A DNA stretch of 64,000 nucleotides. It comes from an uncultured virus (IMG/VR IMGVR_UViG_3300021959_000014) (Duplodnaviria > Heunggongvirae > Uroviricota > Caudoviricetes). Under the pieces are notes generated by a model. That model had not been told where the DNA came from. It did no database searches and was given only the letters and a program-made list of their open reading frames with translations. Where the stretch lies: the IMG/VR virus record IMGVR_UViG_3300021959_000014; one strand, 5' to 3'. Positions 56,630-61,440 of this stretch are shown piece by piece (positions within the stretch are counted from its first letter, which is position 1; the number at the start of each line of letters is the position of its first letter). A program made the translations under genes and the position numbers.

Positions 56630-58198
56630 CTATATAGTGTAAACCGGTGTAGATGTTTTGAAGTCTTTCTTTCTCATTATAGTCTTTGCGTACATATCTA
56701 TACCATCATCTGTAACATCAATTGCAAAAGGAACGTTAATATCATTGTTGAAATCTTTTACTACTGCGTTAATATCCGTATCTAATCTTGAAAGAGGTTT
56801 ACCATGTTTTCTATGTAACCTCTTAAACATACCAATTAGTTCTGGTACTGTTATTGTTTTACCGTTCCGGTCATCGTTAGCTCTGTCCAAAAAGTGTTTT
56901 GTAAACTCTATATCTATCCCTAACTTTATAAAAAGTTTATCTGCGTATTTTTCTATTGCGTTTAATTCTGTTTTTGTAATATTTTCACCTACAATTGATT
57001 CCTTTTTAGTCTTTTCTAAAGAGTCTCCTGCTTTTTTAGCAGCTTTATACGCTTTTGAGTTTTTATGAGAAGCTTTCTTTCCTTTCTTTTTCTTAGCATT
57101 AATATTAGCCCAGAGACCTTCTTCTAAACCTTTTAAACTATCCTCCCAGTTACGGAAAGTTATGTTGCCTAATAGGTACGCTTCTTTTTCTATCTCCATT
57201 AAGTACTCATCTTCATTTGTATTTGAAGTACCTATACGCCCTAACCTACCTTCTATGTTCTGAATATGGTGAATCATTTCGTGAGCAAAAGATCTAACGA
57301 TATCTTTATCGTGTCTTCCTTCTGCGAAAAGTACTATCTCTTTTAATGATGGACTGTAATATGCAGTTCTGCCGAAAAAGTTACTTGCTTCTATTGGGTC
57401 CCTTTTAATTTTTATTTCCGGTAAAGGTAATATGTTCATTTTACGGTCTAACATATATTCAGTCAAAGATGTTATATAATCTTTTAATTCTAGTTTCTTA
57501 CCTGCTTCTTCATTTATTTCTACCTCTAATTGTTCTACTTCGTTATTTTCGTTAAGAGCAAAATATTCATCTATAATTCCGCTGAGACTTGAGCTTATTA
57601 CTTCTGCTACTATTTTATCTTTCAAACCTGTAAGTATTGATAGTATTTCTTCTCTAGATAACTCTTTAGGGAAAAAATCTAAAATCTTATCTAAGTTACC
57701 CGATAGTATATTGTTTCTAAAATCTGTTGCTCTAATTGTTGACCCAGGTTTTGCTGCGAGTGCTAATCCTTTAACATTGGGAGCGTTTTTATAAGTAGTA
57801 ACTCTCCTTAAATCTACAAAATCTTTCTCACCTCTTATTCCTGTTACTGATGCGAATTCTTGTTCAGGGTTAGCTTGTGCATAATCTTTGGCTGCAAACA
57901 TTGGGTTGCTCCCTCCGTCTTTTATCTCAACATTACCTAAGTATTTAGCATAAGTATTCCATATAGACATTGATTCATCTTTAGATATACCGTTTCTCTC
58001 ACCTGCTCCTACGAAAACTATAACCTTGTCTATATTCGGTTTTTCACCGTTGCTGCCACCTAGAAGTGAAGCACCAGTTTCTTTGTAATTATCTTTATTA
58101 TATATTGAACCGTTATATGAGCCGTCTAATAATGACTTTACTACGTTGTAATGTCCTCTATGAGGAGGTTTATATGCGCCTGGGTATAATGCTATCAT
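56630..58198 (-). CDS. Multidomain protein: HxGH nucleotidyltransferase-like + zincin HExxH + basic peptide + C-terminal FTKHFLDR domain
   Basis: PGAYKPPHRGH and RATDFR (Rossmann NTase); FAHEMIHHIQ..EKEAY (zincin); GLWANINAKKKKG; IEFTKHFLDR. Confidence 0.8.
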   Translation of the reverse strand: MIALYPGAYKPPHRGHYNVVKSLLDGSYNGSIYNKDNYKETGASLLGGSNGEKPNIDKVIVFVGAGERNGISKDESMSIWNTYAKYLGNVEIKDGGSNPMFAAKDYAQANPEQEFASVTGIRGEKDFVDLRRVTTYKNAPNVKGLALAAKPGSTIRATDFRNNILSGNLDKILDFFPKELSREEILSILTGLKDKIVAEVISSSLSGIIDEYFALNENNEVEQLEVEINEEAGKKLELKDYITSLTEYMLDRKMNILPLPEIKIKRDPIEASNFFGRTAYYSPSLKEIVLFAEGRHDKDIVRSFAHEMIHHIQNIEGRLGRIGTSNTNEDEYLMEIEKEAYLLGNITFRNWEDSLKGLEEGLWANINAKKKKGKKASHKNSKAYKAAKKAGDSLEKTKKESIVGENITKTELNAIEKYADKLFIKLGIDIEFTKHFLDRANDDRNGKTITVPELIGMFKRLHRKHGKPLSRLDTDINAVVKDFNNDINVPFAIDVTDDGIDMYAKTIMRKKDFKTSTPVYTI

Positions 58199-59136
58199 GC
58201 TAAAAATGATTGTACTTTAGAGTCTATTTCTCCTACTGAGGAGTGATTTAATTTTTCTTGAAATGTTGGATTGTATATCATATCTACAATATTATCTAGA
58301 ACTTCATCTGCTTTTCCTTTTCTTTTTATATTGCTGTCTCTATACTTTTGAACTGCTGCTTTAAGCTTATCCTGTCCTGGGCCTGCTCCGTTCTTTCTGT
58401 AAGCTTTTAGAAATGCAGTTTTAATTGCTTTGTCTTCTGATCTATTTTCTTTATCCCAATCTATACTACCAACATCTTTTATAAATTGTTGCTCTTCTTC
58501 AGGTGTCATCTCTACTGGTACAAAGAAGGAAGAGCCGCCGACATTATTATCTTGATTAAATTTCTCTAAATAATCTTTTACTCCACTTAAGCCACTTTTA
58601 GCAGCTTTATCAAATCCTTCAACTTCTTTTTTATATTTACCGCCTCTATCACTTACAAAGATAGATAAGTTACCTTTTAACTGTCTGTTAAAGTCTTCTA
58701 TTTTAGTATACACATTTCTCCAGGTAGCAAATACAGAATCGCCAGGAATATTTCTTTCCCTAGCCATAAAGTTAGAAACGTAAGAAATCATAGGGTGAGC
58801 ATACACCATAACCATATAGACCTGGTAGCCTGTTGCAAGTAATTTATCTAGATTTTTTTGGAAGCCTGCTCCGGATGCAGTAGTATCCCAAACAAAGCTA
58901 GTTTTTTCTTCTGCTGCTGCCATTGCGTCTTTGGACGTTTGATTGGCTGCTGGTCCTAGTTTGTTGTAATACGGGTGGTCTTTGTCCTCCACGTACTTGT
59001 CTGGGTTGAATTGTACTAGGCTGTCTAGTCCTAATTGGTTGAGTAGGTACGTTTTCCCTGATCCTGCTCCTCCCGCCATTATTATTGCTTTGGGTGCGGA
59101 TCTGTCCTCTAGTATTAGTGTTGATAATTTTATCAT
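58195..59136 (-). CDS. P-loop kinase (zeta-toxin/AAA_33-like) with MIKLSTLILE leader
   Basis: AIIMAGGAGSGKT Walker A, FNPDKY, FVWDTT, R.R.IP lid motif. Confidence 0.85.
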   Translation of the reverse strand: MIKLSTLILEDRSAPKAIIMAGGAGSGKTYLLNQLGLDSLVQFNPDKYVEDKDHPYYNKLGPAANQTSKDAMAAAEEKTSFVWDTTASGAGFQKNLDKLLATGYQVYMVMVYAHPMISYVSNFMARERNIPGDSVFATWRNVYTKIEDFNRQLKGNLSIFVSDRGGKYKKEVEGFDKAAKSGLSGVKDYLEKFNQDNNVGGSSFFVPVEMTPEEEQQFIKDVGSIDWDKENRSEDKAIKTAFLKAYRKNGAGPGQDKLKAAVQKYRDSNIKRKGKADEVLDNIVDMIYNPTFQEKLNHSSVGEIDSKVQSFLA

Positions 59137-59734
59137 CTGTCGTGTTATTTGTTCTTCGGTTTCTTACTTCTAGTTTAATTATATCTGCAATCTCGTCTAC
59201 TGTTTGAGTTCTTCTTGTAGTTTGTCTTAATCTTCTACCTGAAGGAACTATATTAACACTTCTTCTACCGTACATGTATGTTGCATTCCATCCTCTATTA
59301 TAATTAGGATAATAGTTCCAATTGTGCCATCCGTAGTAGTTATTCCAACCGTAGTTATTATACCCCCATCTGTCGTATCCAAATGGTGACCATCTATGAG
59401 GTGTGATACCCCATGCCCAATCGTTCCACATTTGAGTTCTGTTCCAATAGGGACTATAACCTAACCCGTAGTATGGATTATACCTATTGTACCTGTTACC
59501 TAGAATACGATTATTCCAATCAAATGATATGGGTTGACTTAACGCATATTGAGCAAAGTCAAATCTAAAATTAAAATCTGTTCTTAATAGTCGTTGAAGT
59601 TCAAACTCATTATCTATTACTATTATTTCTGCATCTGATCCTTGTATGCTATAGTTAGGATCGTGATTTAAGGTGCTTACCTGTAAAGAAGAGCATCCTG
59701 TTAATAATACTAGTAAAAATAATAACTTTTTCAT
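58898..59734 (-). CDS. Lipoprotein with a Y/W/G/N-rich middle and R/Q/S-rich tail, overlapping the kinase gene by 239 nt
   Basis: MKKLLFLLVLLTG-C lipobox; the kinase codons in the overlap avoid creating stops in this frame. Confidence 0.8.
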   Translation of the reverse strand: MKKLLFLLVLLTGCSSLQVSTLNHDPNYSIQGSDAEIIVIDNEFELQRLLRTDFNFRFDFAQYALSQPISFDWNNRILGNRYNRYNPYYGLGYSPYWNRTQMWNDWAWGITPHRWSPFGYDRWGYNNYGWNNYYGWHNWNYYPNYNRGWNATYMYGRRSVNIVPSGRRLRQTTRRTQTVDEIADIIKLEVRNRRTNNTTDDKIINTNTRGQIRTQSNNNGGRSRIRENVPTQPIRTRQPSTIQPRQVRGGQRPPVLQQTRTSSQSNVQRRNGSSRRKN

Positions 59735-59737
59735 ACA

Positions 59738-60520
59738 TTATAATTTTAGAGTTGTAGGGTAACTATTATAAATAGGTTCTGTATTAGGGTTCTCTAATGA
59801 ATATAGTTTATATATCATTTTAAACAATTCAAAATTTTCCTCTATTTCATCTATTTGTAATACTTTCCACCCTTTACCTTGTATTACGTTTTTCTGTTTT
59901 GATGGACCTCTAGAATGAGCTTTTAACCATATTATCCCTGTACGTTGTATTTTTATTCCTTTTGCTTCTTCTAAACCTTTTGCATAAGCTGAAAGCTGTA
60001 AATCAAAAGACTTGTGGACTGAATTGGATGTTTTAATATCCAGTAGCCATATTTCTCCGTGCATCTTTACTACCAAGTCTGCTGTTCCTGCATATTTGTG
60101 TTCATCTGACCATACAAAATCTTCAGCAGATATTAATTCCGGCTTATGTGTTCTCCAGAAATCAGCAAACTTTAATATCATTTCCCAAACTATTTGAGAG
60201 TATTTTGCATTGCCGTAATCATCCATCCAGGTAACTTCTTTACCTAGAACTAATTGTTCACATGCTTCATGTACCTGTGTTCCTTGTTTTCCTGCTCGTC
60301 TCATAATAAGATCGGCGTTATGCCCAACATCCTTGAGCCAAGACTCAAAAAATTTGTTTTTGGGCATATACTGAAGTATGGTTGTTACGGACGGGTAATA
60401 TACTCCTTCGCCTCTCTTATAAACTCTTCTATCTAAGAAATTAATCTGCTTTAGTTGGGGATTAAAATCTAATCTTTTCTTTTCATTCTGTTCAAGAATA
60501 TTCATTCCTTGCTTTATCAT
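59738..60520 (-). CDS. PD-(D/E)XK (Cas4/RecB-like) phage exonuclease
   Basis: YPSVTTIL, GTQVH, E, YAGTADL, LLDIKTS, QLSAY. Confidence 0.88.
   Translation of the reverse strand: MIKQGMNILEQNEKKRLDFNPQLKQINFLDRRVYKRGEGVYYPSVTTILQYMPKNKFFESWLKDVGHNADLIMRRAGKQGTQVHEACEQLVLGKEVTWMDDYGNAKYSQIVWEMILKFADFWRTHKPELISAEDFVWSDEHKYAGTADLVVKMHGEIWLLDIKTSNSVHKSFDLQLSAYAKGLEEAKGIKIQRTGIIWLKAHSRGPSKQKNVIQGKGWKVLQIDEIEENFELFKMIYKLYSLENPNTEPIYNSYPTTLKL
59768..59775 (-). promoter_or_regulatory. Possible late promoter CTATTTAT embedded in the exonuclease 3' end, for the lipoprotein
   Basis: About 34 nt upstream of ATG 59734, matching the spacing of the intergenic copies. Confidence 0.4.
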
Positions 60521-61440
60521 AGGTTTAATTTTTGCAGCATTATTTTAGAAAAGTCTAGTTCTGCTGCGTTCTGTACTAATTTAGTAAAGTTTTTAAACCC
60601 TAACTGTGATGGGTCTTTACCTTTTAGCTCTATTAAATAAACTTTAAATCCTGCTGCTATAAATTTTTCAGCTATTTTTAAAGCTGCGTCTTGAGCATCT
60701 TCGTCTAATGCGATATATATGTCTGTAAGACGGCTTGTTATTATTTTTTTATATAGTTCAGTTGATACACTTTTACCAAGAAGCGGTATGGCGTTTCTTT
60801 TAATTGCCATTGCATCAAACACTCCTTCACATAGTATGATTGGAGCATTCCAGTTAATAAGGTTTTCGTAAAATATTATGTCTTTAGAAACTTCAGGATT
60901 TTTGTATTTAAAGAAGTTTCCATCATAGCTTCTTCCAACAAAATAGTTGAGCCTATTGGACTCAGTATAACTTGGCAAAATAACTCGTCCTCCATACTCA
61001 CCAGTTGTGCAGTATCCAATACTATATTTAATAAAATCATTGTCGGTAAGTCCTCGTTCATATAGGTAGTTTTTAACTATATTAGCTACAACTGATGTGT
61101 TTGATGCTTTATATAGTAGTTGATACTCTTTTGGTAGCTCTACTATAGATAGCTGTTTATATTCTATATTTGAACCTTTAGGTAGGTACTTTAGAACTAA
61201 TGCTGCTTCTTCCTTTGGTGTTCTTAGCTGTTTTAGTAATGAGCGTATAGTACGGCCTCTTGTCTGACATACCCAGCACTCCCAAGGGTTATGTCCCTCC
61301 TCGTTAGTTTCCATGTTTATCTCTAACTTGGGTTTTCTATGGTTGCAAAATGGACAGTGAAAAGCGTGGTTTCCTCTAGCTCTCTTATGAGATTTACCCA
61401 AGAGGTTTTCAATAGAACCTAATAAAAAAGAATATTCCAT
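60517..61440 (-). CDS. DnaG-type DNA primase (Zn finger + TOPRIM)
   Basis: CPFCNH...CWVC zinc-binding domain; YLYERG; ILCEGVFDA; IALDEDA; KDP. Confidence 0.9.
   Translation of the reverse strand: MEYSFLLGSIENLLGKSHKRARGNHAFHCPFCNHRKPKLEINMETNEEGHNPWECWVCQTRGRTIRSLLKQLRTPKEEAALVLKYLPKGSNIEYKQLSIVELPKEYQLLYKASNTSVVANIVKNYLYERGLTDNDFIKYSIGYCTTGEYGGRVILPSYTESNRLNYFVGRSYDGNFFKYKNPEVSKDIIFYENLINWNAPIILCEGVFDAMAIKRNAIPLLGKSVSTELYKKIITSRLTDIYIALDEDAQDAALKIAEKFIAAGFKVYLIELKGKDPSQLGFKNFTKLVQNAAELDFSKIMLQKLNL

Follow-up and report, generated by a model that had tools for sequence, protein, structure and literature searches.

Gene organization of the locus

All 36 open reading frames (ORFs) of at least 150 aa and all 42 ORFs of at least 100 aa in the window (the whole 64,000-nt stretch of DNA analysed here) are carried by the minus strand. 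The ORF list and profile searches identified a primase (61440..60517) and a PD-(D/E)XK exonuclease (60520..59738), and these are followed by a 278-aa lipoprotein ORF (59734..58898), a 313-aa P-loop kinase ORF of the Zeta_toxin family (59136..58195) and a 522-aa ORF (58198..56630) with a nucleotidyltransferase-like N-terminus, the last assignment being our own reading. The lipoprotein and kinase ORFs share 239 nt (58898..59136, minus strand), and this same-strand overlap, which had been proposed in a sequence-only reading of the window, is exact to the base. Within the dual-coding segment, which is delimited by the ORFs, the codon statistics and the relatives described below, kinase codons 1-80 occupy frame 0 and the lipoprotein tail occupies frame +2; since 59734-59134 = 600, position 3 of each kinase codon is position 1 of a lipoprotein codon, as the same reading had it. 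The kinase start ATG (59134..59136, minus strand), the first start codon after the in-frame stop, is nested in the lipoprotein codons GAT GAT. The Walker A motif (P-loop) GGAGSGKT, kinase residues 22-29 (59050..59073, minus strand), is read as ..NGGRSRIR.. in the lipoprotein frame, and the lipoprotein stop TAG (58898..58900, minus strand) is made by the kinase codons ACT AGC (T79 S80). Among the other pairs of ORFs of at least 100 aa each in the window, the overlap never exceeds 8 nt.

The lipoprotein begins with a signal peptide, MKKLLFLLVLLTGC, with the lipobox L-T-G-C, read directly from the sequence (59693..59734, minus strand; Cys14 codon at 59693-59695). Cys14 is invariant in all 56 aligned homologues, and the lipobox is of the bacterial type. 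The LPAM_1 lipid-attachment-site model matches 18 of the 56 family members at E<=1 (best 9.3e-5); the window protein itself, at E=0.95, is below threshold. Searches of Pfam and PHROG yielded no family other than LPAM_1. Homologues are numerous (589 at E<=0.001 among 995 candidates), and no Pfam domain was found among the 120 listed. A conserved core, approximately residues 40-110 (59405..59617, minus strand), is defined by invariant residues (F56 R57 A61 A64 Q67 P68 S70 F71 D72 W73 R99 M102 W103 D105 W106 W108) and by helices in the AlphaFold2 model, of which it is the sole part predicted with some confidence (pLDDT 59-81 in the blocks covering residues 31-80, 44-53 at residues 81-100 and 75 at residues 101-110). 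The model as a whole is poor (mean pLDDT 47.2, pTM 0.31). The C-terminal tail, approximately residues 191-278 (58901..59164, minus strand), is basic, polar and disordered, judging by composition and pLDDT, and its last 78 codons are inside the kinase gene. The ESM Atlas returned just unnamed viral clusters at 0.97 for this protein; the DUF6600 and YXWGXW-repeat clusters found at 0.76-0.80 were treated as leads only, with no confirmation from Pfam. An identification as an o-spanin (Rz1-like) was rejected given the length of 278 aa, the neighbouring exonuclease and kinase genes, and the lack of a PHROG spanin match.

The kinase matches PF06414 (Zeta_toxin) with E=4e-12 and 46.4 bits (cutoff 22.3) and phrog_2071 ('ATPase') with E=9.7e-9. 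Like the Zeta toxin / AAA_33 P-loop kinases, it scores above the Pfam threshold and contains a Walker A motif. It adjoins a nucleotidyltransferase-like gene. The PF06414 match begins at kinase residue 11, which corresponds to profile position 12. The first four residues, M1 I2 K3 L4, are invariant in all 14 aligned kinases, as are the P-loop residues G22, G23, G25, G27 and K28 among the aligned kinases. No solved structure matched the kinase profile among PDB sequences at E<=0.01, and tblastn against 50,697 phage records gave no match. The 522-aa ORF downstream contains an HxGH-type nucleotidyltransferase motif at the N-terminus (own reading) and a metallopeptidase-like HEMIHH motif, and its C-terminus matches phrog_23027, a family without an assigned function. 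In Flavobacterium phage immuto, the syntenic gene is annotated as a NadR-type NMN adenylyltransferase (NMNAT). The combination of a kinase with an NMNAT-like neighbour hints at a role in phage NAD metabolism.

Codon usage of the kinase in the overlap

The part of the kinase gene that is shared with the lipoprotein is nearly devoid of codons ending in T. As noted in the sequence-only reading, only three of the first 80 kinase codons have T at the third position (T3), namely TAT, AAT and ACT, compared to 82 of the 233 codons in the rest of the gene (p=1.8e-9 in the Fisher comparison suggested there) and to a T3 frequency of 0.343 across the whole window. Every one of the 11 C-ending codons reported to precede AA or AG is present, and T-ending codons resume immediately after codon 80 (TTT GTT .. 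GAT ACT ACT). The overlap includes 24 codon junctions at which AA, AG or GA comes next, and at 18 of these, the preceding residue has a T-ending synonym that would make a stop in the other frame; T is used at none of the 18. Leucine codons are shifted as well, with CTN accounting for 7 of 9 inside the overlap and 5 of 12 outside it.

Given the kinase protein sequence and the codon usage of the window, a +2 frame free of stops over 78 codons has a probability of 1.2e-5, which drops to 2.8e-6 when codon usage is taken from the rest of the kinase gene. The overlap frame is the most extreme of the 28 alternative-frame runs of at least 45 codons found in the 42 ORFs of the window.

Conservation of the overlap in related viruses

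Related loci were collected by scanning viral contigs with the kinase, which yielded 28 loci, followed by the best 80 of 257 and the best 80 of 245 relatives. The 79 complete kinase genes in this collection correspond to 60 distinct nucleotide sequences, with 61-100% protein identity to the window kinase. In 55 of the 60, the second frame is free of stops for 203-254 nt from the kinase start, and the first 65 alternative codons of these 55 overlap-type genes contain no stop at all. Stops scattered through the alternate frame of close relatives would argue against dual coding; such stops are confined to five relatives, precisely the ones whose lipoprotein terminates at or upstream of the kinase start or is missing. 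The overlap is also retained at 8 of 9 and 4 of 12 loci in further sets and at all 10 kinase-linked loci reached through the lipoprotein. The lipoprotein stop TAG is at the identical place in 15 of the 16 distinct sequences of the first set and is shared by most of the 55; in the other relatives, the stop is at nt 203-242, and for one gene (L082), for which another start was chosen, the value is 254.

The codon signature is shared by these relatives. Pooled over the 55 overlap-type genes, T3 amounts to 312 of 3575 (8.7%) in codons 2-66 and to 4624 of 12660 (36.5%) after codon 82, the pooled counts coming from related and hence non-independent sequences. The profile across 41 relatives shows a sharp boundary at codon 80, where T3 rises from 0.03-0.20 in the bins covering codons 1-80 to 0.53 in the bin 81-90. 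At junctions where T would make a stop in the second frame, T3 is 0 of 903 in the overlap type, compared to 51 of 91 in the uncoupled genes and 1861 of 3446 outside the overlap. The depletion extends to junctions where no stop could result, with T3 at 312 of 1988 (15.7%) inside the overlap and 47% outside it, and 226 of these 312 codons yield Ser in the tail. By a parsimony count on the kinase tree, 12 at-risk third positions of the overlap changed 41 times, and T occurs at a single one of them, presumably the alternative early lipoprotein stop of some relatives; outside the overlap, T appears at 13 of 16 at-risk third positions. Diversity at codons for invariant residues is 0.278 inside the overlap and 0.380 outside it (p=0.01), synonymous-site constraint in orthologous kinases being a check that the sequence-only reading had suggested. 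Thus, both frames are open beyond chance in diverged relatives, and the synonymous sites are constrained inside the overlap only.

One contig departs from the common layout. In L019 (3236-3244), a TA duplication right at the lipoprotein stop turns CTAG into CTATAG, so that the lipoprotein frame is fused to kinase residues 80-313 in a 520-aa ORF and the kinase frame is truncated at 96 aa; the duplication is due to faulty assembly or else marks a defective variant that occurs in nature.

Relatives in which the genes are uncoupled

Several relatives serve as natural controls. In L042/L044 and in L077, the lipoprotein stop is 2-9 nt ahead of the kinase ATG; in L078, the lipoprotein ends in an ATGA overlap with the kinase; and in L031, the lipoprotein gene is absent, the kinase still being 80% identical, and the second frame contains four stops. 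In the five uncoupled genes together, T3 is 104 of 325 (32%) in codons 2-66 and 442 of 1147 (38.5%) outside, and the second frame contains 4-16 stops. A further uncoupled clade (L093-L098, L102, L105) has T3 at 19-23 of 65 codons and 6-9 second-frame stops. The second frame thus decays where the two genes have come apart.

At the same lipoprotein-kinase junction, the uncoupled relatives show ATGA/TAATG coupling. The kinase start reads ATGA in every case seen, so that a lipoprotein moved into the +1 frame stops there at once. In L093 (2078-3001) and its relatives L094-L098, the lipoprotein is in the +1 frame and ends in the kinase ATGA, and the tail contains a repeated 7-residue motif (NNYKPS / NNYSRPS / SNYSRPS). 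The uncoupled kinase-linked lineages also bear their own S/R/N-rich basic lipoprotein tails.

A tree of the non-overlapping kinase residues places the uncoupled genes among overlap-type sequences and requires at least four changes to account for their state. Within this sample, therefore, the overlap looks older than the uncoupled state and seems to have been given up on several occasions. Part of this pattern may be due to recombination: compared to their nearest overlap-type relative, L042/L044 show 91% nucleotide identity after nt 246 and 75% in the first 240 nt, with 91% identity of the protein.

Composition and selection in the overprinted tail

The tail had been described from the window as an R/Q/S/N-rich, disordered peptide, and the relatives bear this out. 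Across the 55 overlap-type sequences, its composition is 17% R, 13% S, 13% Q, 11% P, 8% N and 8% G, and pLDDT is below 50 for most of residues 191-278 in the AlphaFold2 model. The leucine codons of the kinase are shifted to CTN in 356 of 480 cases inside the overlap versus 301 of 702 outside, as a result of which tail residues become T, P or A instead of hydrophobic.

An OLGenie-style test revealed no purifying selection on the exact tail sequence, with dNN/dNS at 1.25 (bootstrap 0.85-1.91), that is, a second-frame ratio that does not fall below 1. In a control, a non-coding frame elsewhere in the kinase, the ratio is 1.20, so the exact tail sequence is not detectably conserved beyond the level imposed by the kinase. 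Likewise, the distance over changes that are synonymous in the kinase and nonsynonymous in the tail is 0.96 inside the overlap versus 1.28 outside, only about 25% lower. The earlier suggestion that selection keeps both frames open is thus supported, with the qualification that the constraint concerns stops and composition. The depletion of T at risk and non-risk junctions alike, the shift in leucine codons and the null dNN/dNS result jointly point to a constraint on openness and on a polar, basic composition.

A tail of this kind is found throughout the lipoprotein family. Averaged over the 120 listed homologues, the C-terminal 80 residues have a net charge of +14 to +17. RRKN is the C-terminus of 44 of these proteins, 34 of which belong to the 84 without the PxxQQT pattern by which the overprinted type was recognized, a pattern that misses some overprinted tails. 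Lipoprotein loci without the kinase, which were reached through one lipoprotein homologue, adjoin a helicase gene, lie between DHFR-like and GlyA-like genes (identified by our own reading of ORF translations) or lie near small basic proteins (L106, L108, L116, L142, L148, L157, L167, L170). At these loci, the tail is encoded in unshared DNA, and stops occur throughout its other two frames. On other viral contigs, the family is found with at least four distinct sets of neighbouring genes, and from this distribution, the lipoprotein looks like a mobile gene of the 'moron' type.

The N-terminal body is nearly identical between the overlap-type and stand-alone-tail lipoproteins. In a tree of this body, built from 41 of 60 rows after 19 were dropped for a failed motif anchor, the two types are interspersed and poorly resolved (8 changes versus 9.1 on average after shuffling). 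When stand-alone and overprinted tails were aligned as nucleotides, the sole match was an A-rich one, about 15 nt long, at the RRKN end.

A probable dual-coding segment under compositional selection

These observations make it highly probable that the locus contains a genuine, long-maintained same-strand dual-coding segment in which the synonymous sites of the kinase have been purged of T to keep a polar tail frame usable. Ribosomes starting at the lipoprotein ATG (59734) would pass the kinase start and terminate only at the TAG (58898-58900), so that kinase codons 1-80, including those for Walker A, would encode the last ~79 lipoprotein residues in their +2 frame, and separate ribosomes would initiate independently at the kinase ATG (59136). 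A T at the third position of a kinase codon would make TAA, TAG or TGA before AA, AG or GA and would otherwise introduce F, L, Y, C or W into the tail; the purge of T would leave a second frame that gives a stop-free, polar, strongly basic and disordered tail. We infer that this tail is translated and useful. The overprinted tail would be the local version of a feature found across the lipoprotein family, elsewhere in unshared DNA, and selection would act on openness and composition rather than on the exact tail sequence.

A broader evolutionary reading, to which we give roughly even chances, is that, instead of a de novo protein, the overprinted segment represents a like-for-like substitute for the polycationic disordered tail of the family, often ending in RRKN, drawn from the second frame of the P-loop region of the kinase and held only by selection on openness and composition. 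The segment would be old in a large clade of marine phages and would have been undone independently at least 4-5 times, with one escape growing a new tail of 7-residue repeats. More speculatively, and rather doubtfully at this stage, the lipid-anchored polycationic tail might act on an anionic polymer of the envelope or on incoming DNA, for example, in superinfection exclusion.

That the tail amino acid sequence shows no detectable selection, and that the ATGA/TAATG coupling in uncoupled relatives implies that expression of the two genes is linked somehow, would also be compatible with a frame kept open for ribosome traffic, which would tune kinase initiation or protect the mRNA, the tail peptide itself being irrelevant. 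This explanation appears improbable, however, given that T is depleted threefold even where no stop is possible, with the remaining T-first codons mostly encoding Ser, and that the leucine shift to CTN swaps hydrophobic tail residues for polar ones. Furthermore, the composition, charge and frequent RRKN end match those of family tails in unshared DNA, and the uncoupled lineages swapped in another basic S/R/N-rich tail rather than losing the tail.

Still less probable is a translated but functionless read-through, in which the openness of the frame would be a by-product of the kinase sequence and codon usage. Chance alternative frames of 58-71 codons do exist elsewhere in the window, and even in uncoupled genes, this part of the kinase gives an alternative frame that is intrinsically rich in R, S and T. 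A by-product, however, is contradicted by the contrast between overlap-type and uncoupled relatives and is hard to reconcile with the 1.2e-5 probability of an open frame in the window, with T at none of the 903 at-risk junctions in 55 distinct relatives despite 41 changes, or with the quick appearance of stops after uncoupling, such as the four in L031, where the kinase is 80% identical.

An annotation or assembly artefact, with the true kinase start downstream of 58898 or the lipoprotein ORF lengthened by a frameshift error, is very improbable and is refuted by the retention of both frames in independently assembled contigs. The 2-nt TA duplication at the lipoprotein stop of L019 shows that indels happen there, but Walker A and the preceding strand are inside the overlap, in the kinase frame and invariant, the Pfam match starts at residue 11, and dozens of independent assemblies have this layout, as do 18 DNA and 6 RNA run assemblies in which at least 59% of the words are present. 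Programmed frameshifting to a lipoprotein-kinase fusion was rejected, as the fusion is found in one contig only (L019) and such a signal needs no 239-nt open frame.

Comparison with known overlapping genes

In phage lambda, the gene for Rz1, a proline-rich lipoprotein of about 60 aa, lies entirely within the gene for Rz, the lysis-cassette protein with which Rz1 functions, and both proteins are produced. The dual-coding segment in the window likewise involves a phage lipoprotein gene that shares DNA with another gene on the same strand in a different frame. Unlike Rz1, only the C-terminal 79 residues of the 278-aa lipoprotein overlap, rather than the whole gene; the partner is a P-loop kinase located among genes for replication and nucleotide metabolism (primase, PD-(D/E)XK exonuclease, nucleotidyltransferase-like); and there is no sign here that the lipoprotein and the kinase work together.

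Overlapping genes in phages have long been known, and the pair in the window is a further, well-controlled example. According to PMC7017920, overlaps of more than 50 nt occur, by annotation, in 61% of dsDNA virus reference genomes. Overprinted viral proteins in general, the subject of PMC8227390, PMC6195259 and PMC7017920, resemble our case in combining an old frame, here an ancient P-loop fold, with a compositionally biased, disordered frame and constrained synonymous sites. The differences are that here the overprint is the tail of an existing lipoprotein, mirroring the family tail in unshared DNA, rather than a new protein, and that at least four lineages undid the overlap, which provides built-in negative controls. 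We found no paper on this particular lipoprotein-kinase gene pair, which is not proof of absence.

Long same-strand overlaps in large dsDNA phages are usually trimmed or dropped by gene callers and annotators, and few have internal controls. Here, the uncoupled sister lineages show the kinase codons without a second frame, so that the signature of dual coding (T3 loss, leucine shift and sharp boundary) is directly readable. The locus suggests that a disordered tail defined by its composition can move onto the alternative frame of another gene and be kept there by selection on stops and composition alone, a type of selection that overlap tests based on dN/dS miss. In practical terms, recoding or codon optimization of the kinase would destroy the lipoprotein tail.

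Expression and probable host

Between 59% and 92% of the words sampled from the stretch are present in six metatranscriptome libraries, and contigs of 1466 and 1245 nt, from two such libraries, span both genes with no difference. Contigs of this kind lend weak support to expression because RNA libraries can contain DNA and the contigs show neither strand nor translation.

A Shine-Dalgarno-like core precedes only 3 of the 42 ORFs, and the 20 nt upstream of the starts are 52% A; few Shine-Dalgarno cores and A-rich start upstreams are typical of Bacteroidota. Cultured relatives were found only among Flavobacterium phages of the immuto group, which match 255 nt of the exonuclease gene at 69% nucleotide identity and have the gene order in common with the window. 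This uncultured marine phage probably has a host from the Bacteroidota. Flavobacterium phage immuto also has the order primase-exonuclease-X-NMNAT; its X is an unrelated protein of 302 aa.

A 61-codon ORF inside the primase gene

A second candidate for dual coding lies upstream in the same locus. A 61-codon ORF (MNEDLPTMILLN..., 61061..60876, minus strand) is located fully within the +1 frame of the primase gene (60517-61440, minus strand). Its probability of being open in the window is 3e-4, the second most extreme among the 28 alternative-frame runs, and the encoded peptide has no match in PHROG. Judging from its conservation pattern, this ORF is probably a second real overlapping gene. Under the broader evolutionary reading given above, this clade of phages, with the primase-embedded gene as well, would be a natural model system for the gain, maintenance and loss of dual coding in large dsDNA phages. 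The ATG, length and stop of the embedded ORF are the same in all 73 distinct primase sequences, with no internal stops. Synonymous codons that would make a stop number 0 of 478 inside the ORF versus 665 of 1093 and 924 of 1333 in the two primase flanks, and third-position diversity of the primase is 0.244 inside the embedded ORF compared to 0.455 and 0.453 outside it.
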